Positions 3 to 14,059 of a DNA stretch of 14,227 nt are shown here, piece by piece. Below the pieces are notes generated by a model. The model did no database searches and was not told where the DNA came from. It saw only the letters and a program-made list of their open reading frames with translations. The position numbers and the translations under genes are program-made. Source of the stretch: an uncultured Myxococcales bacterium (lineage in GTDB: Bacteria; Myxococcota; UBA4151); the NCBI GenBank assembly GCA_964013405.1, contig CAXGWI010000095.1, positions 1-14,227 of the forward strand. The letters are read 5' to 3'. How positions within the stretch are numbered: the stretch's first letter is position 1; the number at the start of each line of letters is the position of its first letter.

Positions 3-2093
3 GACGGGGACGGTTGTTCCGCCACCTGCGGCGTGGGCGTGGTGGATCTCGTCGCTGCGCGAGACAGCACCTGCGCTCGGCTGGAGCGAGGCTGGGTCTA
101 TTGCTGGGGCAGTAATTATGCTGGGCAACTCGGCCTAGGAGACAACCGGGCAAGAGCCTATGCGAGCCGCGTACCAGGGCTGGAGCAGGTGACGCAGATC
201 CATTCCGCAGTCCAGGGATATTCTGCCCTCCAAGAGGGTCAGGTCTTTCTCTGGGGGCATGGCGGCATTGGAGAGAGGGCTCGCTTAACCGCCAATGCGG
301 TCCAGGGTTTGGATGATGTTCAATGGCTGGCACAAGGGGCTTACAACTATTGTGTCGTGCGCTCCAACGGTCGAGTCTGGTGCTGGGGCGACGACATCGG
401 TGCAGAGCCTTTGGAAGTCATGGGTCTTGACGACATCGTGGCGGTGGATGTGGATCGAAACCACCGCTGTGCCCTGGACGGAGCCGGTCAGGTATGGTGC
501 TGGGGTGCCAATGACGTGGGTCAACTAGGCCAAGGGGATCGAGAGCCCCGAGATGATCCGGTGCGGGTCGAGGGTCTGGAGGATGTACGACAGGTTTTTA
601 CCCACTTAAACGCGAGTTGTGTGGTCACCACCTCAGACCAACTGTGGTGCTGGGGTGAGCCTTTCAGTATGCCCGTGCGACCGGGCGAGACGGCGAACTC
701 CCCTCAACGGTTCCCCCAGGCGGAGCCTGTTGCCTTTCTAAGAAAACGCCCTGGGAGGTGGCAGCAATCGATGACGGCCGTCGATCCGGAGGGCCGAACC
801 CTTATCTGGGGCTACTCCAACACCCAACACAACGATGTCACCCACAATCCAGAATCGCCGACCTATCGTTTATCAGTCCATGGTTTTGGACACTTCTGCT
901 GGGTTCCCGACGATGGCATCTTGCGCTGTCGAGCGGGTAGGAACAGCTACCCTTATGGTCAAGCAGGTAACGGCTTAGAACCCTTCATCCTGCAACCCAC
1001 AGTCCTCGACCACACCCCCAGAGCGCAGCATTTGAGCGGCATCGGCAGCATGTGCCTGGTCGATCAGCAAAGGCGGGGCTGGTGCCGAGGCAACAACGAG
1101 TTTGGTCAACTCGCCAATGCCTTGGTTGCAGAAGAAGAACATGTGAATCACTGGGTCCAAGTGCACGAATTCGCCGATCTGCAGGCCATCGAAACCTCCG
1201 GCGACCACGTGTGCAGTGTGAACATCGAGGGCCAGGCTCACTGTTGGGGGCGCGGCGACGCAGGGCAGTTGGGCGATGGGCACGGTGTCAATGATATCAT
1301 CGCCGTCCCCGTCGCCTTGCGCCAAGTCCATGCCATCGAAGTGAGTGAGGGCAGCAGCTGTGCCATTCATGGAGCCGAGCGGCGTTTAAGTTGCTGGGGC
1401 AACAATTGGGGTGGAAAGCTCGGCGTGGGGCTTGAACTGGATGAAATTGAAACCCCAATGCTCGTGGGCGATCTCACTGGCGTTCAGCAGGTGACGCTCG
1501 GCGGACAGGTCACCTGCGCCATCGACGGCATGAATCAAGTGCATTGCTGGGGCCGTAGCCAGTACCTGTTTTGGGAACTCGAAGGCGTGGAAGCGGAGCA
1601 GGATGTTTCCTTGAACACCCCGACCCCTTTGGTGCAATTGGGCGCAGCCCGCTGGATTCACAGTTCGGGGGCGCGGGCTTGTGCCGTCCTCGAGGAGGGT
1701 CAAGCCACCTGCTGGGGCACGACTTCAAATGGTAATCTCGGCGGCTCCGGCGCGACAGACTACACCGTCTTGGCCAATGTGGCTGATGCCCTGGAAGTGC
1801 AACTCGGCGGGAATCACGGCTGTGCCCGTGAAGCCAACAATCGGCTGATCTGCTGGGGCAGCAATAGCTCTGCACAAATGGGCAACGGAGCCTATGAGAA
1901 CCGATCCTACCCCCCCACAGAAGTTGAAGTGGATGCCGCCAGCCATCTTCAGACCTCTGGACGTACGACTTGTGTCCTCGATACTGAGGGTCAGGTGCTT
2001 TGCTGGGGCGCCAATGGTGGCGTTGGCGTGCCCTTAGAAGTCTTGCCCATCGGCTATGACATGGAGCGGGTCCGAGGCATCGATGTGGACTAA
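3..2093 (+). CDS. RCC1/BLIP-II-like repeat protein (14 repeats, probably two 7-bladed beta-propellers), preceded by the end of a myxobacterial Cys-rich repeat; 5' end lies outside the window
   Basis: The frame is open from the window edge: nt 3-32 read DGDGCSATCG, matching the Myxococcus cysteine-rich repeat (DUF4215-type), so GTG at 33 is probably not the start. There are 14 C/L/I-WG-like blade motifs (e.g. VYCWGSNYAGQLG, VWCWGANDVGQLG, AHCWGRGDAGQLG). Stop TAA 2091-2093. Confidence 0.9.
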   Translation, partial: DGDGCSATCGVGVVDLVAARDSTCARLERGWVYCWGSNYAGQLGLGDNRARAYASRVPGLEQVTQIHSAVQGYSALQEGQVFLWGHGGIGERARLTANAVQGLDDVQWLAQGAYNYCVVRSNGRVWCWGDDIGAEPLEVMGLDDIVAVDVDRNHRCALDGAGQVWCWGANDVGQLGQGDREPRDDPVRVEGLEDVRQVFTHLNASCVVTTSDQLWCWGEPFSMPVRPGETANSPQRFPQAEPVAFLRKRPGRWQQSMTAVDPEGRTLIWGYSNTQHNDVTHNPESPTYRLSVHGFGHFCWVPDDGILRCRAGRNSYPYGQAGNGLEPFILQPTVLDHTPRAQHLSGIGSMCLVDQQRRGWCRGNNEFGQLANALVAEEEHVNHWVQVHEFADLQAIETSGDHVCSVNIEGQAHCWGRGDAGQLGDGHGVNDIIAVPVALRQVHAIEVSEGSSCAIHGAERRLSCWGNNWGGKLGVGLELDEIETPMLVGDLTGVQQVTLGGQVTCAIDGMNQVHCWGRSQYLFWELEGVEAEQDVSLNTPTPLVQLGAARWIHSSGARACAVLEEGQATCWGTTSNGNLGGSGATDYTVLANVADALEVQLGGNHGCAREANNRLICWGSNSSAQMGNGAYENRSYPPTEVEVDAASHLQTSGRTTCVLDTEGQVLCWGANGGVGVPLEVLPIGYDMERVRGIDVD

Positions 2094-2147
2094 GCCGAAG
2101 CGTTGCAGCGCCGGCAAAATTCGGCTTCACTAAGGCGAGGCGAATCC

Positions 2148-2900
2148 ATGACGCTCATGAACCGACGGCAGGCGCTGCGACTTAGCGCCAAGGGGCTGGC
2201 TGGCTTGATGGCCACCTTCCCCCTGCTGAAAGCCTGCGCCCACCCCATGGGGCCCGAGGGCAGCGAGCCGGCCACCGTCGCCGGGGATGGACCGACTCCG
2301 ATCGAGCCTGGCCCCATCGACTGGGAGGACTTTCTCAGCCAAGTGAGCGAGCTGGCTGAGATCCAATTCAGCCCCGATTGGAATCAAGAGGCCTATGTGG
2401 AAGATGTGCGCCAACTGATGGCTCGCCTGAACCTCGAAGACCCCTTTTTGATCCAGGCCTATGCCGATTACGCAGATCAAGTCCGAGACTTCCCCGAGAT
2501 CACCCAAGTGTATCATGAGCCGGCCTTCGAGGTGGCCATCCTCGAATTCGAAGAGGGTGAGGTCATCCCTTTGCACGACCATCCGGACATGACGGGGGTC
2601 ATCATGTGTGTCAGTGGCACGGTGGACGTGGAGAACTTCACGCTCCTCGATGAGCCGGCCGAAGACAGCGAGTTTCTGCTGCAGCGCACCGCCCAAACCC
2701 GGATGCGGGCTCTCGACATCGGCACGCTCACATCCCGAGACAGCAACATTCACAGTCTGAAGGCCCTGGAGTTCACCCAGATGCTCGACGTCTTCACCCC
2801 ACCCTACAATGAAGATCGCAGCAACCGCAGCCGTTGGTTTCGCCGGGAGGCATCCCCCCTGCCGGGTCGTGACGAGATCTTCGCCGCCTGGGAGCGCTGA
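2148..2900 (+). CDS. PCO/ADO-family (cysteamine dioxygenase/plant cysteine oxidase-like) cupin thiol dioxygenase, predicted Tat-exported lipoprotein, 250 aa
   Basis: ATG 2148 follows AGGCGAGG at 7 nt spacing. The N-terminus has MNRRQAL (twin-Arg), a hydrophobic stretch, LLKA-C30 and a Pro-rich linker. The core has IPLHDHPDM, NIH and MLDVFTPPY, as in the ADO/PCO three-His cupins. Confidence 0.8.
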   Translation: MTLMNRRQALRLSAKGLAGLMATFPLLKACAHPMGPEGSEPATVAGDGPTPIEPGPIDWEDFLSQVSELAEIQFSPDWNQEAYVEDVRQLMARLNLEDPFLIQAYADYADQVRDFPEITQVYHEPAFEVAILEFEEGEVIPLHDHPDMTGVIMCVSGTVDVENFTLLDEPAEDSEFLLQRTAQTRMRALDIGTLTSRDSNIHSLKALEFTQMLDVFTPPYNEDRSNRSRWFRREASPLPGRDEIFAAWER

Positions 2901-2903
2901 GCC

Positions 2904-4093
2904 CTAGCGAAAAGCGCCAGGCACCAAGGCCACCGGCGTGCTCGCCGGCAGGCGATAAATACTCTCGCTCACCAGCGCATCGAGGCCTTTCAATTCAGCT
3001 CTGGGATCGCTCACTTTGGGATACACAGCTCGCAGCTTATCGAGGGCACTGGCTGGCAACAGCGCGAGTCGAGCCCCTTCCGGTCCGGCCTCTAAGTCTG
3101 CATCAGCCGGTGCACAGGGCGGTGAGCCCACCGCACCAAAGGCATCACCAACCTCCATGGTGACCAACTCCGTCTCCATACTTCCCCGGCGGCGCAGGGC
3201 CCGGATCTGCCCCCGCAACACCAAACCCAGCATGGCCTGTTCTTCACCCTCGTGGAGCAACTCTTCGCCGGGCTCAAACTTACGGTAACGAAACTTCACC
3301 AACAAACGGGCTTTCTCGGAATAATCCAGATCCCGAAAGCCGGGTAACGCGCCGATCATGTTGAGCAAGAGCCGGTCACGACAAAAGCGTAGCAGGACCT
3401 CTTCGAAGGCCACGTCCTGCTGGGTCTCTCGCTGCAACACGCTGGCGCTCAACTCCAGCAAGCACGTCTCCCCCAGACTCCGTACTGTCGCGGCCCGAGG
3501 CCGCCCCGAAAGATAGGAAAAGACCCCGAGGACCCCCCCCGAAGTCATCCGCATCCGCTCCTGTTCGACCCCTTGGTCTCCCCCTAAAACTTGGACCAGT
3601 CCCGAGGTGATCAAATAGATGGAGTCGCCCGATTGGCCAGGCTCAAACAGGACCTCTCCATCCTCTAAGCGTACCAAGCGACTCGATTCCACCAAACGCT
3701 CAAAGCTGGGCCCCGGGAAGAGCGATAAGACGCCCAATTCCTTTTTCGACATCAGGTGGGTGGTTTCGGTCACGTCGGTCACCGCCGGTTTCCGACTGCG
3801 CAGCGCCGAGACCAACATCATCCCACTGTCGCTACCCGCCTGGCCACCGGCCGCATAAAGCCGGGAGATCAGGCGGAGCACCCGGGCATTGCCCGGATGG
3901 CGACTGAGGGCTTCTTTTGCCGTCTCGGCGGCCCAAGGCCCTTGCCCGGCCCGATGAAAGTCACGAATGGCCGTGAGATAGGATTCGAGGTCCCCTTGCT
4001 CTCGGGCAGCTGCCAGCGACCCTTGTGCACTCTGAATGAGTTTCGCTTGGTCGGAAGGAAAGAGCCATGCTTTCAGCTTCCGCCAAACGCCCA

Positions 4094-4094
<1 letters not shown>
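2904..4094 (-). CDS. Tandem cyclic-nucleotide-binding (cNMP) domain protein with N-terminal TPR-like helices and no HTH
   Basis: Two CNB-like units: GEVLFEPGQSGDSIYLITSGLVQV...GRPRAATVRS and GEELLHEGEEQAMLGLVLRGQIRA. TPR-like segment AAETAKEALSRHPGNARVLRLISRLY. The ATG overlaps the upstream TGA by 1 nt (TGATG). Confidence 0.8.
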
Positions 4095-6411
<2,317 letters not shown>

Positions 6412-6777
6412 CTAGCGGGCGAGGCGCTCATACATGCGGGCAAGGAGGCCCGACACACGATCCGCTCGCTCTTGAAGGTGCTCTAGACGATCCAAATCCA
6501 GTTCCGGGGGATCGATGGGCCTGAGATTTCCACTGGCGATCTGCTGCTCGATCGCGGCAAGGCCGAAGCCTTCCTCAGCCCGATCCTTGACGAAAAGAAT
6601 CATCTTCACGTCTTCACGAGTGTAGCGGCGCTGACCCGTCCCACCGCGGGCGGGGGCCAAGCGTGCGAAACGCTTCTCCCAGAACCTTAGTTTGCTGCAG
6701 CTCACCGTGGCGATTCGAGCGACCTCACCAATGCGGAAGAAGCTCTTATCTCCCGGAATGCGAGGGTCTGCGCTCAT
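6412..6777 (-). CDS. Small MerR-family HTH regulator of the type commonly found directly downstream of ihfA
   Basis: IPGDKSFFRIGEVA...LRFWEKRF...GQRRYTREDV; ATGA overlap with the ihfA stop. Confidence 0.9.
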   Translation of the reverse strand: MSADPRIPGDKSFFRIGEVARIATVSCSKLRFWEKRFARLAPARGGTGQRRYTREDVKMILFVKDRAEEGFGLAAIEQQIASGNLRPIDPPELDLDRLEHLQERADRVSGLLARMYERLAR

Positions 6778-7088
6778 TCGTTCCCCGGGTTCAACTGGGC
6801 CCGCAGATTGGGGCTTGGGCGAAAGGTCACCACGCGACGGGCGGAGATCGTGACTTCCGACCCCTTCGACTTGGGGTTTCGACCGACTCGAGGACTCTTG
6901 TCCCGTAAGCGAAAGGTACCAAAGTTGGTTAACTTGACGTGATGGCCCGAGGTCAGACCCTCTTTCACCAACTCAAGGAAGGCTTCGACCGCTCGTCCGG
7001 CTTCCCTCTTGGAAAGCCCCGTCGACCGATGCACGGAGTCGACGAGATCCATCTTCGTCATCGTTTCGACCGCTGCTGCTTGGCTCAT
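6774..7088 (-). CDS. ihfA: Integration host factor subunit alpha (IHF/HU family)
   Basis: MTKMDLV...VKLTNFGTFRLRDKSPRVGRNPK...ISARRVVTFRPS; canonical position after pheT. GGAG lies 6 nt before ATG 7088; an alternative ATG is at 7061. Confidence 0.93.
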   Translation of the reverse strand: MSQAAAVETMTKMDLVDSVHRSTGLSKREAGRAVEAFLELVKEGLTSGHHVKLTNFGTFRLRDKSPRVGRNPKSKGSEVTISARRVVTFRPSPNLRAQLNPGNE

Positions 7089-7144
7089 GCCTTACTCCAG
7101 AATCCAGGGGTCAATTGTTCCCTGTCTTTTTGTCCCTTCGGCTG

Positions 7145-9496
7145 TCAACGGCGCAGCCGCGCGCCCATGCGGTCCGCGGCCAAGCTCTGATACCGTTCCA
7201 ACCAATGATTGATCTGCTTCTCGCCCAGCGTTCCCTCGCTCGATTGTAATGAAAACCGTACGGCCACGGACTTCTCATCGGCCTCCAGGCCAGGCCCTCG
7301 ATAGACATCGAACACCCGGGCTTTGACCTTCAACTGAGGATCGACCTCCCCGGCCAAGTCGGCCAGGGCGCCCGCGGGCTGAGCTTCAGAAACCACAAGC
7401 GCCAAGTCCCGGTGAACGGCCGGAAAGCGTTCAAGTGCTTGAAAGCTCGCCAATCCCTGGGCCGACGCAATGAGGGCAGTCAGATCGAGATCGATGAGCC
7501 AAATCCCCTCCGGCAGATCGTATTGGTGACGGATCTCCGGATGGATTTCCCCCAATGTCCCGAGAGCTGTGTCGCCACAATGAACCCGGGCCGAGCTCCG
7601 GGGATGCAGGAACGGATCCTCACTGCGCAGCAAGGTGCAGGAAGGGATTCCCTGGCCCATCAGCAGTCCATCGAGCAGGCCCCGGACCGTTGCTAAGCCT
7701 TCGACACCGGGAGCTCCTTCGAAGAGCAGGCCGAACCGTTTCGATTCTCCATGCGAACCAAACACTGTCCCCTGTTCGCAAAGCCTGAGCCCGGTCAATC
7801 CGTGCCGGAGATTGCGGGCTGCAGCCTCCACCAGTTGGGGCCTGAGGTCGTTGCGAAGAAAACGGGTTTCTTCGCCCAAGGGATTCGAAATCGGCAGGCC
7901 TTCCCGGCCGCTGCGTTCGATCCACTGGGGGCTGGCAAAGGCGAGGGAGACCGTTTCGTGGAAGGCCTGGCCCCGCAGACCATCCCGGAGGGCTCGACCG
8001 AGGGCTTCGCGAGGGTCCACATTGCTGATGGTCGCCGTTGGCGGTGGCTGTGGCGGCAGGCACTCAGGCACCGCAGCCATCCCCACGACCCGTAGGAGTT
8101 CCTCTGCCAAATCCGCTGGCCGGGTGAGATCGGGACGCCAACTGGGCGCCACCACTCGCTGGCCTTCAACCTGGCAGCCGATCGCCTCAAGAATACTCGT
8201 CGCTCGATCCGTGCCCAGTTCAAGACCGATGAGCTGCTCGGCCTCGGCCAGATCCAGATCGATCACGTGCTGCCCCGTTGGCGGCTCGCCCGAACGCACC
8301 CGCCCCGAGGCAACCTCCCCGCCGGCCAACTCAGCCATCATGCGGGCTGCTTCATCCAGAGCCACTTCGACCCGCTGAGGGTCCGTGCCCCGCTCAAAGC
8401 GATGACTCGACTCGGAATGCAGAGCAAGACGCCGGGCTGTGCGACGTACGGTGGCCGGATCGAAAAGGGCTGCTTCGATGAGCACTTCTCGGGTGCCTTC
8501 ATGCACCTCTGAATCGGCCCCACCCATCACACCCGCGAGGGCCACCGGCCCCACACCATCACAGATGAGCAGGTCGTCGGTGAGCAGGTCTCGCTTCTGC
8601 CCATCGAGGGTCGTCATCGACTCGCCGGCTTCAGCCTTACGTACCTGAATGGCTAAGGCCCCAGCAGCGTTCGGGCGCAGACGTTGGGCGTCAAAGGCAT
8701 GCAGAGGCTGCCCATGGCTCATCAAAATGTAGTTCGTAACGTCCACCACATTATTGATGGGGCGAACCCCCGCGGCATGGAGCCTCCCTTGGAGCCAGTC
8801 CGGACTCGGACCGATGGTGACACCACGGACCAAGCGGGTGCCGTAATAACTGCAGGCCGGATCTTCCACCTGCAATGACAAGTCGTAATCCGGGCCCACG
8901 GCATCCACATTGGCCACCACAGGCTTTAGGGCGAGTTGAGGATGGCGCAGGCTTAACTCCCGGGCCAGGCCGATCATGGACAAGGCATCGCCCCGGTTTG
9001 GCGTGACGCTCAAATCCAAAATGAAGCGCCCGCCGTTGCGCAGATAGTCACTCAATGCCCGGCCCACCACCGCGTCGTCGGCGAGGATCATGATCCCATC
9101 GTGATCTTCTCCGAGGCCGAGTTCCTTGAGCGAACACATCATCCCGCTGGAGGCTTCGCCGCGAATCTTGGCCTTCTTGATCTTGAAGCCACCAGGCAAC
9201 ACGGCCCCGGGGACTGCGACGGCGACCAAGTCCCCCTGTTGGTGATTCGGGGCACCACAAACGATCTGACTTGGTGCGTCGGCGCCAATATCAACCTGAC
9301 ACAGGCTAAGCCGGTCGGCATTGGGGTGCTGATCTTTGACCAAGACCCGACCGATGACGATGTGATCGGCCACATCTGCGTCGGAGAAGACCCCTTCAAC
9401 CTCAACGCCGAGATCCGTGAGGTCGGCCGAAACCACCGCTTCCGACGGGAGCTCGCCGTCGAGCCATTCCCCAACCCAATCACTGACGAACCTCAT
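7145..9496 (-). CDS. pheT: Phenylalanine--tRNA ligase beta subunit
   Basis: OB domain HPNADRL/IVCGAPN/GMMCSLKELG, TPNRGDALS, INNVVDVTNY, GQPLHAFD, RFERG, PSWRPDL, and anticodon-binding RDLALVV/FDVYRG. ATGA overlap with pheS. Confidence 0.98.
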   Translation of the reverse strand: MRFVSDWVGEWLDGELPSEAVVSADLTDLGVEVEGVFSDADVADHIVIGRVLVKDQHPNADRLSLCQVDIGADAPSQIVCGAPNHQQGDLVAVAVPGAVLPGGFKIKKAKIRGEASSGMMCSLKELGLGEDHDGIMILADDAVVGRALSDYLRNGGRFILDLSVTPNRGDALSMIGLARELSLRHPQLALKPVVANVDAVGPDYDLSLQVEDPACSYYGTRLVRGVTIGPSPDWLQGRLHAAGVRPINNVVDVTNYILMSHGQPLHAFDAQRLRPNAAGALAIQVRKAEAGESMTTLDGQKRDLLTDDLLICDGVGPVALAGVMGGADSEVHEGTREVLIEAALFDPATVRRTARRLALHSESSHRFERGTDPQRVEVALDEAARMMAELAGGEVASGRVRSGEPPTGQHVIDLDLAEAEQLIGLELGTDRATSILEAIGCQVEGQRVVAPSWRPDLTRPADLAEELLRVVGMAAVPECLPPQPPPTATISNVDPREALGRALRDGLRGQAFHETVSLAFASPQWIERSGREGLPISNPLGEETRFLRNDLRPQLVEAAARNLRHGLTGLRLCEQGTVFGSHGESKRFGLLFEGAPGVEGLATVRGLLDGLLMGQGIPSCTLLRSEDPFLHPRSSARVHCGDTALGTLGEIHPEIRHQYDLPEGIWLIDLDLTALIASAQGLASFQALERFPAVHRDLALVVSEAQPAGALADLAGEVDPQLKVKARVFDVYRGPGLEADEKSVAVRFSLQSSEGTLGEKQINHWLERYQSLAADRMGARLRR

Positions 9497-10533
9497 GGCT
9501 GCGCCTCCCGATCCAGTTGCTTGAACTGCTCAAGGAAGTCGATGCGAGAATCGAAGAATAAACGGATGTCGGGGACTCGATAACGAAGCATCGCGATGCG
9601 CTCCACCCCCATACCGAAGGCGAAGCCACTGTATTGCGTGGGATCGATATTGACGGCTTCCAAGACGTTCGGGTCAACCATGCCGCAGCCCAGAATTTCG
9701 AGCCAGCCCGTATCACTGCAAACCCGGCAGCCCTCACCGCCGCAGAAGATACAACTGACATCAACCTCGGCGCTGGGCTCAGTGAAGGGAAAGAAACTCG
9801 TCCGCAGACGAATCTCTGTCTGAGCGCCGAACATCTCCCGGGCAAAATGAGCCAGCGTTCCCTTGAGGTGGGCAAAGCTAATGTCCTTGTCGATCAGCAG
9901 CCCCTCGACCTGATGAAACATCGGACTGTGGGTCACATCGGCATCGCAGCGATACACCGCACCGGGTGCGATCAAGCGCAGAGGAGGAGCGTTCTCCATC
10001 ATGCTACGAATTTGGACGGGGCTCGTATGGGTCCGCAGCAGCCGACCATCCTGGAGATAGAAGGTGTCCTGCATATCCCGAGCCGGATGGTCCGGTGGTA
10101 TGTTGAGCGCGCTGAAGTTATGCCAGTCGTCTTCCACTTCGGGTCCGCTGGCCACCTGATAGCCCAGCCGAGCAAAGATGGCGGTGATCTCATCTTGAAC
10201 CCGGCGGAGTGGATGGGCCACACCATGATGAAGGCCCTCGGCCCCCGGCAGGCTCAGATCAATCCGTTCCGACAATTCCGCATCGAGCGCCGCACGGGCC
10301 AAACCTTGCTCACGGGCAGCGATGGCCTGAGACAGCGCAGCTTTGACCCGATTGGCGCCCTGACCCAGCGCCTTGCGGTCCTCTTTAGGTAACTGGCCTA
10401 GGGTACGAAGGATCTGAGCCACATGCCCCTGCTTGCCCAGGTAGGCGACGCGGATCGCCTCAAGGGCCTCACGATCGGCCGCAGCGATGGCTTTGAGGCC
10501 CTCGGCCTCCAAATTTTCGAGACGGTCTAGCAT
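9493..10533 (-). CDS. pheS: Phenylalanine--tRNA ligase alpha subunit
   Basis: HPARDMQDTFY, LRTHTSPVQIR, HSPMFHQVEGL, FPFTEPSAEVD and GFAFGMGVERIAM. Confidence 0.99.
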   Translation of the reverse strand: MLDRLENLEAEGLKAIAAADREALEAIRVAYLGKQGHVAQILRTLGQLPKEDRKALGQGANRVKAALSQAIAAREQGLARAALDAELSERIDLSLPGAEGLHHGVAHPLRRVQDEITAIFARLGYQVASGPEVEDDWHNFSALNIPPDHPARDMQDTFYLQDGRLLRTHTSPVQIRSMMENAPPLRLIAPGAVYRCDADVTHSPMFHQVEGLLIDKDISFAHLKGTLAHFAREMFGAQTEIRLRTSFFPFTEPSAEVDVSCIFCGGEGCRVCSDTGWLEILGCGMVDPNVLEAVNIDPTQYSGFAFGMGVERIAMLRYRVPDIRLFFDSRIDFLEQFKQLDREAQP

Positions 10534-10551
10534 GGCAGCAACCCCTGCCGA

Positions 10552-10911
10552 TCAAGCGGTAACAGCAGCCTTTGCTTTGTCCACCAGCTCGGTGAAGATC
10601 TCAGGCTCGTGCAACGCCAGGTCGGCCAGAACACGACGGTCCAACTCGATTCCAGCTTGGGACAATCCGTGCATAAATCGGCTGTAGGACAATCCGTTGG
10701 CCCGGCTCGCCGCATTGATGCGAACGATCCACAGCTTGCGAAAATCCCGCTTCTTCTGCTTGCGGCCCTTGTAGGCATGCTCGTGGGCCCGGTCGACGGC
10801 CTGACGGGCAACCCGCCAGACATTCTTCCGCTTTCCGCGATAACCTTCAGCCCGGTTGAATACCCGCTTGCGCCGACGCCGGGAGACAGTACCACCTTTA
10901 ACTCGTGACAT
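10552..10911 (-). CDS. rplT: 50S ribosomal protein L20 (bL20)
   Basis: MSRVKGG...GYRG...[19 protein letters not shown]...YSRFMHGL; the SD AGGAGG overlaps the rpmI stop TAG. Confidence 0.99.
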
Positions 10912-10923
10912 GGTGCGTCCCTC

Positions 10924-11130
10924 CTAGATGTACGGCACGCAACGAGCGACCATCTTGGTATCGACGGCATCGAGGGTGCGGGTACCACGGTGCTGGCGCT
11001 TGTACTTGGCGCTCCAGGCCGTGAAGTTGTGGCTTGTGTTCGCGCGCTTGGCTTTGAGCTTGCCCTTCGCCGTGCGCTTCAAGCGCTTTGCAGCGCCCCG
11101 AACGGTCTTCATTTTGGGCCCTTTTGCCAT
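10924..11130 (-). CDS. rpmI: 50S ribosomal protein L35 (bL35), 68 aa
   Basis: PKMKTVRGAAKRLKRTAKGK...SH...PY, lying between infC and rplT. The start is reassigned to ATG 11130, which has GAGGAGG 6 nt upstream. Confidence 0.95.
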   Translation of the reverse strand: MAKGPKMKTVRGAAKRLKRTAKGKLKAKRANTSHNFTAWSAKYKRQHRGTRTLDAVDTKMVARCVPYI

Positions 11131-11230
11131 GACGGGCCTCCTCTTTTTCAACCGGTGAGGCGGGCTTTGTCTTGCGACCAAGCCACTTGTTGAGAGCCCC
11201 ATTCGGCGGCCCCTCCTAAAGGAGGCGGCG
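11131..11230 (-). promoter_or_regulatory. Structured 5' leader of rpmI-rplT, candidate L20 autoregulatory ribosomal leader
   Basis: Hairpin CCUCC-UUUA-GGAGG (11212-11225); GNRA-capped hairpin GGCUU-G-GUC-GCAA-GAC-A-AAGCC (11163-11184); the flanking GGGCUCUCAAC can pair with GUUGA...GAGGCCC across the rpmI SD. Confidence 0.5.
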
Positions 11231-11236
11231 GCGCAG

Positions 11237-11263
11237 AAAGTACAAAAGGTGCCCCTGAGTCAA
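11237..11263 (-). promoter_or_regulatory. Possible sigma70-type promoter for rpmI-rplT
   Basis: TTGACT (11263-11258), then N15, then TACTTT (11242-11237), followed by GC-rich CTGCGCCGCC. The 15-nt spacer is shorter than optimal. Confidence 0.3.
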
Positions 11264-11302
11264 GGAAAATGGGGGCCACAGCGCATTCGAGGCGAAGAAA
11301 GC

Positions 11303-12028
11303 TCAGTCTGCGGTCACTGCTTCCGCTTCGGAATCAGTCGCTTCCTCGGTCCCTTGGCTGGCGGCCGCAGCAGCCTCTGCAGCGGCCTGTTCAGCGGCTC
11401 GCTCCGCGGAAGCCACTCGAGCGGCTTCCTTTGCCGCTTCTTGCTCTCTGATCTGGGCTGCTCGAGTTTTCGCTCGTTGTTTCAAGGCTTCCTTATTGGG
11501 TGCCAGGATGGCGAACATGTTTCGCCCTTCAAAGCGAGCGACCTGTTCGACTTCCGCCACATCAGCAAGGGTCTCCACCATCTTGTCGATGTGGGCGCGA
11601 GCGATCTCCGGATGGGCCATTTCCCGCCCCCGGAACATGATGGTCACCTTCACTTTGTCGCCCCCCTCAAGGAAGCGACGAGCGTGACCGGCTTTGGTTT
11701 CAAAATCGTGCTGACCCGTCTTGGGGCGGAGCTTCACCTCCTTGACGGTGATCCTCGTCTGCTTTCTACGCTGGGAGGATTCTCTCTTTTTCCGTTCGTA
11801 TTTGGCTCGACCCGCATCCATCAACTTGCAGACAGGCGGCTGGGCTTTCGCACTCACTTCCACCAAGTCGAGACCGGCTGCATCGGCCCTTGCCAATGCG
11901 TCCTCACGACTCAGCACGCCAAGTTGCTCGCCATCGGCATCGATCAACCGCACTTCAGCAGCATCGATTTGGTGGTTCATTCGGGGCTCGTTACTTACCG
12001 GGGCGGGCCCCATGAAACGTCGGCGCAA
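11303..12028 (-). CDS. infC: Translation initiation factor IF-3 with an Ala/Glu-rich C-terminal extension; probable TTG start
   Basis: EVRLIDADGEQLGV, LDLVEV, PPVCKLMD, VKEVKLRP and GDKVKVTIMFRGRE. AGAGGAG (12040-12034) lies 5 nt before the in-frame TTG at 12028. Confidence 0.98.
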   Translation of the reverse strand: MRRRFMGPAPVSNEPRMNHQIDAAEVRLIDADGEQLGVLSREDALARADAAGLDLVEVSAKAQPPVCKLMDAGRAKYERKKRESSQRRKQTRITVKEVKLRPKTGQHDFETKAGHARRFLEGGDKVKVTIMFRGREMAHPEIARAHIDKMVETLADVAEVEQVARFEGRNMFAILAPNKEALKQRAKTRAAQIREQEAAKEAARVASAERAAEQAAAEAAAAASQGTEEATDSEAEAVTAD

Positions 12029-12085
12029 AAAGTCTCCTCTCCCGGTCAGCGGGATCGTCGCTGAGGTGTTAAAGTCTGTTCGTGG

Positions 12086-14059
12086 CTAGAGGTCAAGGTT
12101 TGGCATAGCGGTTTTTGACGTCAGCCAAGCCACCGCTTCTTCCAGGGTCTGCACCCCGAACTGCTCGCCCTGGCGGCTACGGACCGCAAGGGAGCGAGCT
12201 TCCACCTCCTGGTCACCGATGACCAGCAGGTAGGGAATACGCAGAAGGCGAGCATCGCGGATCTTCTTCCCCAGACTCTCGTTCCGGAGATCCATGCTCA
12301 CCCGCAAGTCGGCTTGCCTAAAGGCTGCCTCGACCTCTCGGGCAAAATCCTCTGCCCGCTCTGAAATGGTTAAAACACGAGCCTGCTCTGGGGCCAGCCA
12401 GGCGGGGAAGTCGCCGGCATAATGCTCGATCAGGATACCAAAGAAGCGTTCTAGGCTCCCTAGAAGGGCTCGGTGGATCAGGATCGGGGCACTCTTGCCG
12501 CCCTCCGCATCGATGTAGGACATGCCAAAGCGCTCGGGCAGGTTGAAGTCCAACTGCACCGTGGAGCATTGCCAGGTCCGGCTCAGCGCATCTTTGATCT
12601 TCACATCGATCTTAGGCCCATAGAAAGCGCCGCCGCCCGCATCGAGGACATAGTCTAGGCCTTGGGCCGCGATGGCCTGACGCAGCAGATCTTCTGCTTC
12701 GTCCCACAAGGCTTCGTCACCGACATATTTCTCGTCGGGCCGAGTGCTCAGGTTGATCTCGAAATCCTCAAAGCCAAAGGCGCTTAGGATGGCGAGGACG
12801 AAGTTGAGGACCCCAATGAGTTCTTCACCCAGGTTCTCGCGGGTGCAGATGAGGTGGGCGTCATCCTGGGTGAAACCACGAACCCGCATCAAACCGTGGA
12901 GGGCCCCTGCGAGTTCATAGCGATAGACCGTCCCCAGCTCGGCGAAGCGGAGGGGCAACTCGCGATAGGACCACTGCCGATGCTTGTACATCATCACGTG
13001 GAAGGGGCAGTTCATGGGCTTCAGCAGATACTGCTCTTCATCCACACCGATGGGCGAGTACATGGACTCAGCATAGAAATCGAGGTGGCCTGAGATCTTC
13101 CACAGGTCGCTTTTCGCCACGTGGGGAGAATAAACGATGTCGTAGCCACCGCGCCGATGGGCTTGGCGCCAGAAGCTCTCGATGACCTCACGGACACGGC
13201 CGCCTCGGGGCAACCAGAGAACAAGCCCCTGGCCAATCTCTTCGTGGAGAATCGAACCATCATCCTGCCGGTGCACATCGCCTCGCTCGGAGACCGTGAA
13301 CAAATCCAGCTCACGACCCAGCTTCCGGTGATCTCGCTTCTTCGCTTCTTCGAGGCGATGAAGATGGGCCTTCAACTGCTTCTTGTTGAAGAAGGCGATG
13401 CCGTAGATCCGCTGCAGCATCTGCTGAGTCGAATCGCCCCGCCAATAGGCTCCTGCGTGGCTTAGGAGTTTGAAGCTTTTCACCAAACCCGTGTGGGGCA
13501 GGTGAGGACCACGACAGAGATCATCAAACTCACCGTGATGGTAGAGGGAGATCTCCCCTTCGGCCGCATCCAAGAGCTCGACCTTGTAAGGCTCATTTTG
13601 TGCTTCAAAGCGCTGGCGGGCCTCTTCCCGATCCACCACCTCCCGACGAAAGGGGCTGTTCTCCCCGATCACCCGCTGCATTTCGGCCTCGATGGCTTGC
13701 AGATCTTCTGGCGTGAAAGGCTCTTCTACCTCGAAGTCATAGTAGAAGCCGTTGACCCCATCATTGACCACCGGTCCGATGGAAATCTTGGCGTCCTGCC
13801 ACAGGCGCTTCACCGCGCTGGCGAGGATATGGGCGGTGCTGTGACGGAGCACCTCAAGAGCTTCGTCGTCATTCTCCGTGAGGATCTGGACCTCATCCTG
13901 GTCCGAGAGGGTCCGGGAGAGGTCGACCACATCACCATTCACCTTGGCGGCGATGGCCCGCCGCGCCAATCCTTCCGCAATCGACGCGGCGAGGTCGTAG
14001 GCAGAAGCGCCTGGCTCCAAGGCCCGCTCAGAGCCATCTGGGAGTCGTACCGAGATCAT
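12086..14059 (-). CDS. thrS: Threonine--tRNA ligase
   Basis: TGS domain (LPDGS), editing domain RHSTAH and DLCRGPH, RDHRKLG, KPMNCP, LMRVRGFTQDDAH, GAFYGPKID, HRALLGSLERF and an anticodon-binding domain. Confidence 0.99.
   Translation of the reverse strand: MISVRLPDGSERALEPGASAYDLAASIAEGLARRAIAAKVNGDVVDLSRTLSDQDEVQILTENDDEALEVLRHSTAHILASAVKRLWQDAKISIGPVVNDGVNGFYYDFEVEEPFTPEDLQAIEAEMQRVIGENSPFRREVVDREEARQRFEAQNEPYKVELLDAAEGEISLYHHGEFDDLCRGPHLPHTGLVKSFKLLSHAGAYWRGDSTQQMLQRIYGIAFFNKKQLKAHLHRLEEAKKRDHRKLGRELDLFTVSERGDVHRQDDGSILHEEIGQGLVLWLPRGGRVREVIESFWRQAHRRGGYDIVYSPHVAKSDLWKISGHLDFYAESMYSPIGVDEEQYLLKPMNCPFHVMMYKHRQWSYRELPLRFAELGTVYRYELAGALHGLMRVRGFTQDDAHLICTRENLGEELIGVLNFVLAILSAFGFEDFEINLSTRPDEKYVGDEALWDEAEDLLRQAIAAQGLDYVLDAGGGAFYGPKIDVKIKDALSRTWQCSTVQLDFNLPERFGMSYIDAEGGKSAPILIHRALLGSLERFFGILIEHYAGDFPAWLAPEQARVLTISERAEDFAREVEAAFRQADLRVSMDLRNESLGKKIRDARLLRIPYLLVIGDQEVEARSLAVRSRQGEQFGVQTLEEAVAWLTSKTAMPNLDL

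Follow-up and report, generated by a model that had tools for sequence, protein, structure and literature searches.

The window, by which we mean the whole stretch of 14,227 nucleotides analysed here, carries at positions 2148 to 2900 of the plus strand a gene that, by translation and Pfam, encodes a PCO_ADO-family cupin of 250 amino acids plus stop, referred to below as P0001. The gene begins 54 nt after an RCC1-repeat gene (3-2093, plus strand), whose product has at least 696 amino acids and runs off the contig start, and it converges on a gene for a protein with two cNMP-binding domains (2904-4094, minus strand). The latter is coupled to a gene for a ParA-family ATPase whose N-terminal extension is unusual, being rich in Cys and containing several CxxC motifs (4094-5083, minus strand), next to which lie thrS, infC, a probable rpmI, rplT, pheS, a probable pheT, an IHF/HU gene, a MerR-type regulator and purA (5080-14059, minus strand). 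No pathway is evident from these neighbours in the window. A purine-rich, ribosome-binding-like stretch (2132-2140, plus strand) ends 7 nt before the ATG, and we accept the start at 2148 because of the spacing of its GAGG, 7 nt upstream, and because the same Met begins relatives with 94% and 82% identity. The source genome has a single copy of the gene, and the hairpin in the intergenic region upstream of it is no better than those of shuffled sequences (z -1.37). Three short contigs of one public metatranscriptome (X1, share 0.09) cover 492 of the 753 nt of the gene at 96-99% identity, and the rest of the 14.2 kb window has no full-length match; this is only a hint of expression, as the run was chosen with a stretch containing the gene and may hold DNA.

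P0001 scores 69.3 bits (E 3.8e-19) against Pfam PCO_ADO (PF07847, cut-off 27), versus 14.3 bits against CDO_I (PF05995, cut-off 23) and 12.9 bits against Cupin_2, and nothing in NCBIfam lies above cut-off. In a sequence search of the PDB the top nine matches are PCO and ADO entries (E 9e-11 to 3e-6, with a range of 9e-11 to 4e-8 for PCO4, PCO5 and ADO), ahead of the best CDO at E 0.078, and a profile built from 46 relatives reaches only nine PDB entries at E<=0.01, all of them ADO/PCO (1.7e-17 to 6.6e-14). The AlphaFold model (mean pLDDT 90, pTM 0.76) has three helices (residues 59-109, 2322-2474, plus strand) before a cupin barrel (residues 117-234, 2496-2849, plus strand), the latter matching PF07847 by Pfam, model and Foldseek. 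In Foldseek the 18 rows listed above rank 20 all belong to PCO/ADO (E 1e-14 to 7e-13); CDO first appears at E 1.3e-9. VIA-align gave near-ties for PCO4 (Z 18.9, rmsd 3.5, 186 aligned), CDO (Z 17.7, rmsd 2.7, 164 aligned) and MDO (Z 17.1, rmsd 3.3, 162 aligned), and the structure-alignment Z was discarded as a discriminator between ADO/PCO and CDO. The assignment of P0001 to the PF07847 sequence family, and neither to CDO/MDO nor to ADO/PCO proper, is thus based on sequence features and not on the fold. An earlier sequence-only reading had proposed membership of PCO_ADO rather than CDO/MDO, and on this Pfam, with the HMM comparison that it had called for, the PDB sequence search, Foldseek, the profile and the tree described below agree; the structural superposition that it had suggested went its way in Foldseek, where PCO/ADO came first, but not in VIA-align.

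By alignment, the predicted metal ligands are His143 and His145 (2574-2582; ADO His112 and His114) and His202 (2751-2753), Asp214 (2787-2789) is the equivalent of the catalytic Asp206 of ADO, and Pro-Pro-Tyr220 is followed by the nine-residue ADO/PCO hairpin (2799-2837), here Arg-rich and with Ser228 and Trp230 in place of ADO Cys220 and Tyr222, all on the plus strand. The motif and codon positions given in the sequence-only reading are exact (His at 2574, 2580 and 2751; LDVFTPPY at 2784-2807, with Asp214 at 2787 and Tyr220 at 2805). The three His are invariant in a close set of 176 rows, which combines P0001 with 95 proteins from databases and 80 loci from genomes and is redundant, with some proteins doubled, and the equivalents of Asp206 and Tyr212 are conserved in 99% and 100% of it and in 100% and 99% of 88 representatives found with HMMER, figures that are partly circular because these very motifs were covered by the patterns used to find the 80 loci, and because an Asp..Pro-x-Tyr pattern served as a filter for the 88 representatives. 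The equivalent of ADO Ile109 and the hairpin length are also kept. In ADO, Asp206 and Tyr212 are reported to bind the substrate amine and side-chain heteroatom, with Asp206 essential for turnover (PMC12098869), and an Asp next to the iron, replacing the SHY motif, is described as the ADO/PCO arrangement (PMC10966181). The absence of S-x-H-x-Y claimed by the sequence-only reading holds across the family, with no SHY-like motif after the third His in any of the 176 close relatives. At the position of CDO Arg60 and ADO Tyr87, P0001 has Ile118 (2499-2501, plus strand; alignment and PMC8503633) and thus no carboxylate-binding Arg; among 175 relatives this position is Ile in 112, Phe in 22 and Leu in 17, and never Arg, and our own alignment places Ser/Ala opposite MDO Arg168. 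ADO is likewise without this Arg, and the presumed reason is that its substrates carry no neighbouring carboxylate (PMC8503633).

The ADO-like set of residues is kept as to the three His, the Asp and Pro-Pro-Tyr, but Phe101 and the Cys220-Tyr222 pair are gone. Leu132 (2541-2543, plus strand; alignment) replaces Phe101, whose position is Leu/Val/Ile in most relatives; Phe occurs in 14 of the 176, all Bacteroidota (14 of the 15 Bacteroidota loci retain it), and is absent from the other 162, as against its presence in 38 of 39 eukaryote-type sequences. The Cys220 position is Ser/Ala in close relatives, and Cys-x-Tyr/Phe within 14 residues of PPY is found in 7 of 167 relatives versus 35 of 38 eukaryote-type sequences. 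The Leu208 position is Phe in 175 of 175 relatives, and the pocket contains an invariant Phe216 and a near-invariant Phe134. The median net charge of the hairpin is +2 in 174 relatives versus -1 in 36 eukaryote-type sequences, and its Arg224, present in 93% of relatives, may be structural. The changes at Phe101, Cys220, Leu208 and in hairpin charge were not among the selection criteria of the sequence set. The eukaryote-type set consists of P0191 and those 38 of 119 metagenome loci in which a single open frame contains both motifs, the other 81 having been dropped as intron-split or cut; its loci were picked by one motif, and the label comes from sequence and tree, not taxonomy. In ADO, Phe101 is reported to stack on the substrate amide, and its mutation to raise the peptide KD up to 80-fold (PMC12098869); the Cys220-Tyr222 pair is described as not essential for ADO catalysis, and the entrance hairpin, which together with Pro-Pro-Tyr defines ADO/PCO and not CDO/MDO, has been proposed to serve protein substrates (PMC8503633). 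The thiol and the amine of an ADO substrate reportedly have to be free; dipeptides bind near 1 uM, and an adjacent negative charge is disfavoured (PMC11406360).

The N-terminus of P0001 has a predicted Tat lipoprotein signal (residues 1-30, 2148-2237), suggested by sequence, relatives and a helix at residues 6-28 of the model, in which twin Arg6-Arg7 (2163-2168) precede a hydrophobic stretch and a lipobox-like Leu-Lys-Ala-Cys30 (2226-2237) has a non-canonical Lys at -2, where relatives have LAGC, LSGC or LGGC. A Pro/Gly-rich tether follows (residues 31-50, 2238-2297), of low confidence in the model (pLDDT 52-54) and of variable length among relatives; all of these features lie on the plus strand. 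By a pattern rule of our own and not a trained predictor, namely RR followed by a 20-residue window with 11 or more hydrophobic residues, a twin-Arg signal is present in 163 of 168 full-length close relatives (8 rows of the close set with too short an N-terminal part being excluded), in 48 of 59 full-length PPY-type representatives from an unseeded HMMER search and in 84 of 84 members of a sister subfamily, compared with 104 among 674 control ORFs taken from the family loci. Pfam TAT_signal does not match P0001. A loose lipobox rule matches 53 of 163, some probably falsely, and the near relatives of P0001 have canonical boxes. The source genome encodes both tatC and lspA (signal peptidase II), and P0001 is predicted to be exported by Tat and lipid-anchored. 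The predicted Tat signals in the protein and in nearly all close relatives point to a location outside the cytoplasm, away from N-degron sensing. For the cyanobacterial cupin MncA, Tat is reported to export the protein folded, after it has been loaded with a weak-binding metal (PMC8867077).

A first protein search with P0001 returned 96 proteins, and a genome scan confirmed 103 relatives, of which 80 were kept. By record title, some of which look misnamed, the 80 loci belong to Pseudomonadota (37), Verrucomicrobiota (20), Bacteroidota (15), Myxococcota (3), Planctomycetota (3), Bdellovibrionota (1) and Acidobacteriota (1), and the family with the predicted export signal, although patchy, is found in at least seven bacterial phyla on this reckoning. 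Many of the Pseudomonadota loci are, judging from their names, sponge-associated bins. The nearest named records, at 94% identity, are Myxococcales MAGs, and among 60 related genomes two carry a match, one of which is weak. At E<=0.001 a family profile matches 2130 cluster representatives, 150 of them inspected; the core motif had no match in viral contigs. Cultured carriers include Endozoicomonas numazuensis, Rubritalea tangerina, R. profundi and Spongiimicrobium salis. Bacterial clusters are labelled PCO_ADO in the ESM Atlas, and one database source auto-names a family member cysteamine dioxygenase; thus the family is in databases, unstudied.

Several variants accompany the family. Five Bacteroidota forms of 355-359 amino acids (L068, L069, L074, L078 and L079) have an extra C-terminal domain of about 100 residues, DUF3471-like in L078 (27.6 bits, under cut-off), and no zinc-type cluster is present within 6 kb of any of them. 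The sister subfamily (P0097-P0190 and L227), whose named members are Planctomycetota, consists of predicted Tat lipoproteins mostly under the Pfam cut-off, with the motif HDHRHYNG, with Asp-x-Phe-Thr-(Tyr/His)-Phe where others have Pro-Pro-Tyr, and with a conserved segment of about 30 residues ahead of the twin arginines. Eight short relatives of 186-212 amino acids (P0276, P0278, P0284, P0289, P0297, P0302, P0309 and P0319) have no signal peptide and begin at the helical domain, and are candidates for cytoplasmic members or for truncated gene calls. On the metagenome contig L141 a eukaryote-type PCO motif abuts an apparent bacterial gene end on the opposite strand; by eye the contig is probably chimeric, and it was left out as a bacterial carrier of the eukaryote-type motif.

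A tree of 97 rows and 123 columns (IQ-TREE LG+C20), from which three long rows and the named ADO/PCO sequences were left out and whose bootstrap had not settled (0.963), splits nine CDO/MDO-type rows from all PCO_ADO-like rows (100/98). The 23 eukaryote-type rows form a clade with L223, an acidobacterial protein on a long branch (100/98), to the exclusion of P0001, which falls in bacterial clades of 14 and 25 rows (99/97 and 99/95); the base of the tree is without resolution in this 97-row set. In a 94-row set without L223, a tree holding all 65 bacterial rows together had a better likelihood than the quick free tree (p-AU 0.68, not rejected). The family thus sides with ADO/PCO while falling outside the eukaryotic clade, a position compatible both with a sister and with a stem of that clade, and we claim no donor. 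As such, the placement proposed by the sequence-only reading is retained as to the side of the CDO split but not as to the eukaryotic clade, and P0001 does represent a bacterial branch of a family that the papers found describe only in eukaryotes, although not the bacterial branch nearest the eukaryotic enzymes, L223 being the bacterial protein that groups with the eukaryotic clade. The relevance to the origin of N-terminal cysteine oxidases that it had suggested is plausible.

When ORFs within 6 kb of 81 loci were clustered, no partner common across phyla emerged, and a conserved operon was rejected; the RCC1-repeat neighbour is common only to the 94%-identical relative. Pfam scans of 68 and 116 proteins from these loci (116 of 174 picked neighbours plus some additions) likewise gave no cross-phylum partner, and they revealed no neighbouring gene indicative of cysteamine, hypotaurine or glutathione use and no ATP-grasp family member among the 184 proteins scanned. 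In six loci (L034, L038, L040, L043, L045 and L047) the gene lies tail-to-tail with znuA, by znuC/znuB, and divergent from two ABC exporter genes, an arrangement that is restricted to one sponge gammaproteobacterial clade and counts once. A taurine route via Xsc was not upheld, Xsc being found in 0 of 37 carrier genomes, which, given a control of 1 of 61 Pseudomonadota genomes over the cut-off, shows only that there is no coupling to the Xsc route; hypotaurine might still be used without Xsc. Replacement of CDO was also dropped, as the finding of CDO_I in 0 of 6 carrier genomes is uninformative because of base rates of 5/61 and 3/51. The source genome encodes a gamma-glutamyl transpeptidase, a common enzyme and a known source of Cys-Gly. 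A de novo palindrome search upstream of family genes found nothing shared beyond close kin.

Eight of the 15 Bacteroidota loci (L060, L064, L067, L070, L071, L072, L073 and L077) lie in COG0523/DUF1826/DUF3526-ABC clusters of several gene orders, and COG0523 and DUF1826 clusters are found in 0 of 65 other loci; these carriers are kin and possibly share one mobile island, and we offer no statistic. L076 and L243 were also noted in such settings. The COG0523 proteins are ZigA-like (561-566 bits, cut-off 600), and cluster-mates include PhoX, a purple acid phosphatase, an S46 peptidase, FolE and TonB receptors. Five loci have a perfect TGCAAC-N3-GTTGCA palindrome ahead of the gene or cluster, at distances from 20 bp to about 15 kb: 20, 755, 332 and 2152 nt upstream in L060, L064, L076 and L077, respectively, and at the head of a 15-kb island in L072. 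In one genome there are 13 perfect sites versus 0 for the control, which indicates that the palindrome is a real signal there; it also adjoins Fur-family genes, TonB receptors and a gene for a protein like the metal-independent carbonic anhydrase (122.8 bits, under the 350 cut-off). We take this palindrome to be a Zur box, and found no literature confirming it as such in Bacteroidota. DUF1826 has been drawn in Zur-regulated COG0523 clusters, and Zur regulons are described as gathering zinc-independent replacements (PMC2770081). No matching box occurs within 250 nt upstream of the non-Bacteroidota genes, and the P0001 gene has no zinc context of its own, as the 4 near-matches to the box in its genome are all off this contig and the COG0523 genes of the source genome lie on other contigs.

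Taken as a whole, these features make an exported Fe(II) thiol dioxygenase of small 2-aminothiols, such as cysteamine and Cys-Gly-type peptides, our best explanation of P0001, with about an even chance of being correct. Following the logic of MncA, the protein would fold and take up weak-binding Fe(II) in the cytoplasm, and would then be exported folded by Tat and anchored by lipid. The free amine and thiolate of the substrate would chelate the iron, Asp214 would steer O2 as Asp206 does in ADO, and the product formed outside the cytoplasm would be a sulfinate of cysteamine or of short N-terminal-Cys peptides (Cys-Gly). The retention of the Asp206 and Tyr212 equivalents together with the lack of a carboxylate-binding Arg points to a 2-aminothiol substrate, and the loss of Phe101 argues against long peptides. 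An anionic tail, as in Cys-Gly, could be accommodated by the basic hairpin, opposite to what ADO prefers. Leu for Phe101, Phe216, Phe134 and the missing Cys220 would also allow for another substrate. Here we speculate, more weakly, that the job of the enzyme might be to clear reactive or metal-binding thiols at the cell surface and not to feed taurine catabolism, and that in Bacteroidota thiol oxidation might also free thiol-bound zinc under zinc starvation.

The zinc link of the Bacteroidota fits a role other than dioxygenation equally well. P0001 could instead be an exported cupin that reuses the 3-His/Asp centre to bind metal, catalysing another reaction or none at all, either as a zinc-independent substitute for a zinc enzyme or as a metal scavenger, and the COG0523/DUF1826/DUF3526 clusters (the first two confined to Bacteroidota), the palindrome at five loci and beside Fur-family, TonB receptor and carbonic anhydrase-like genes, cluster-mates such as PhoX, purple acid phosphatase, the S46 peptidase and FolE, and the habit of Zur regulons of collecting replacements (PMC2770081) all speak for it. 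We nevertheless consider it unlikely, as the equivalents of Asp206, Pro-Pro-Tyr212 and Ile109, which serve thiol dioxygenation in ADO, are conserved, and as the zinc link is limited to kindred Bacteroidota that may share one mobile island, with no box close upstream of the other genes and no paper found that identifies the palindrome as a Zur box. An N-terminal cysteine oxidase acting on exported proteins or larger peptides, such as N-terminal-Cys hydrolases or proteolysis products, and thus an O2-dependent extracytoplasmic modification, appears rather doubtful. The hairpin, proposed for protein substrates, favours it in being of ADO/PCO and not CDO/MDO length and in following Pro-Pro-Tyr; the 14 Bacteroidota relatives with Phe101 and the stand-alone gene without pathway partners would fit a protein modifier too. 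However, Phe101 is lost in most close relatives and nearly universal in the eukaryote-type set, no substrate gene co-occurs, and the N-terminal Cys of mature lipoproteins is blocked.

A carboxylated thiol, such as cysteine or 3-mercaptopropionate, might instead be oxidized by an exported dioxygenase in which a new Arg holds the carboxylate, for which the basic hairpin and the prevalent Arg224 could be cited; this we regard as improbable, given that there is no Arg at the CDO Arg60 or MDO Arg168 positions and no SHY motif, that the Asp next to the iron is of the ADO/PCO kind (PMC10966181) and that Arg224 may have a purely structural role. Finally, the sequence-only reading had described the ADO/PCO enzymes as O2 sensors of the Cys N-degron pathway. 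A cytoplasmic O2 sensor in a bacterial Cys/Arg N-degron pathway, a counterpart of the plant and animal ones, would suit the homology to ADO/PCO, yet the family-wide export signal, the position outside the eukaryotic clade and the lack of any match to the arginyl-transferase domain ATE_C in the 94%-complete source genome make this role scarcely credible for P0001.

Besides the preferred reading of P0001 as an exported aminothiol dioxygenase, a wider proposal can be made, which in its entirety is unlikely: that an extensive, undescribed Tat-exported bacterial ADO/PCO-type family is the sister or stem of the eukaryotic O2 sensors, oxidizes aminothiols or N-terminal Cys outside the cytoplasm, serves in Bacteroidota under zinc starvation by destroying the thiol ligands of zinc and so freeing the metal, and provided the bacterial starting point for N-terminal cysteine oxidases. 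If true, enzymatic thiol oxidation would be a way to acquire metal. For asking what the common ancestor of plant and animal O2 sensing enzymes did, the family would be a nearer outgroup than CDO, its natural variants at Phe101, Cys220 and the hairpin give a handle on peptide versus small-thiol specificity, and the cultured carrier species make it directly testable. An active member would be a thiol dioxygenase located outside the cytoplasm and might take part in the cycling of thiols and zinc in sponges and waters. According to a 2025 review, PCO_ADO-type sequences are confirmed only in eukaryotes (PMC11773813), and the bacterial thiol dioxygenases named in a preprint are MDO and MSDO (bioRxiv 10.64898/2026.05.19.726356). 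Our literature search found nothing on bacterial or exported PCO_ADO proteins, which subscription reviews or supplements could mention, on a thiol dioxygenase outside the cytoplasm or on seawater thiols as zinc ligands.

Among known systems, MncA is a manganese cupin that is Tat-exported folded after metal loading (PMC8867077), but it belongs to a different cupin family and its likeness to P0001 is one of export logic only. CDO and 3-mercaptopropionate dioxygenase (PF05995) share the overall fold (Z 17.7 and 17.1 versus 18.9) and the 3-His centre, whereas P0001 is under their Pfam cut-off, lacks the SHY motif and Arg60, has the ADO-type Asp and hairpin, and is separated from them by the 100/98 branch. 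Human and mouse ADO (PDB 7REI, 8U9J, 9DXB, 7LVZ) resemble P0001 in PF07847, the 3-His centre, Asp206, Ile109, Pro-Pro-Tyr212, the nine-residue hairpin and the lack of both the SHY motif and a substrate Arg; P0001 differs in its Tat/lipoprotein signal, in an identity of only about 20% in structure alignments, in Leu for Phe101, Ser/Trp for Cys220/Tyr222 and Phe for Leu208, in a hairpin that is basic where that of ADO is acidic, and in its place outside the eukaryote-type clade. Arabidopsis PCO2, PCO4 and PCO5 (PDB 7CXZ, 7CHJ, 6S0P, 7CHI) have the same catalytic residues and are the best sequence and Foldseek matches, but act on cytosolic or nuclear N-degron substrates and otherwise show the same contrasts as ADO. 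The acidobacterial cassette of an ATP-grasp, a PCO_ADO and an unknown gene (L223:95-3173) likewise encodes a bacterial PF07847 protein (89.4 bits), which, unlike P0001 with its RCC1-repeat and cNMP-binding neighbours, is without a signal peptide, retains both Phe101 and Cys-x-Tyr, and clusters with the eukaryote-type sequences.
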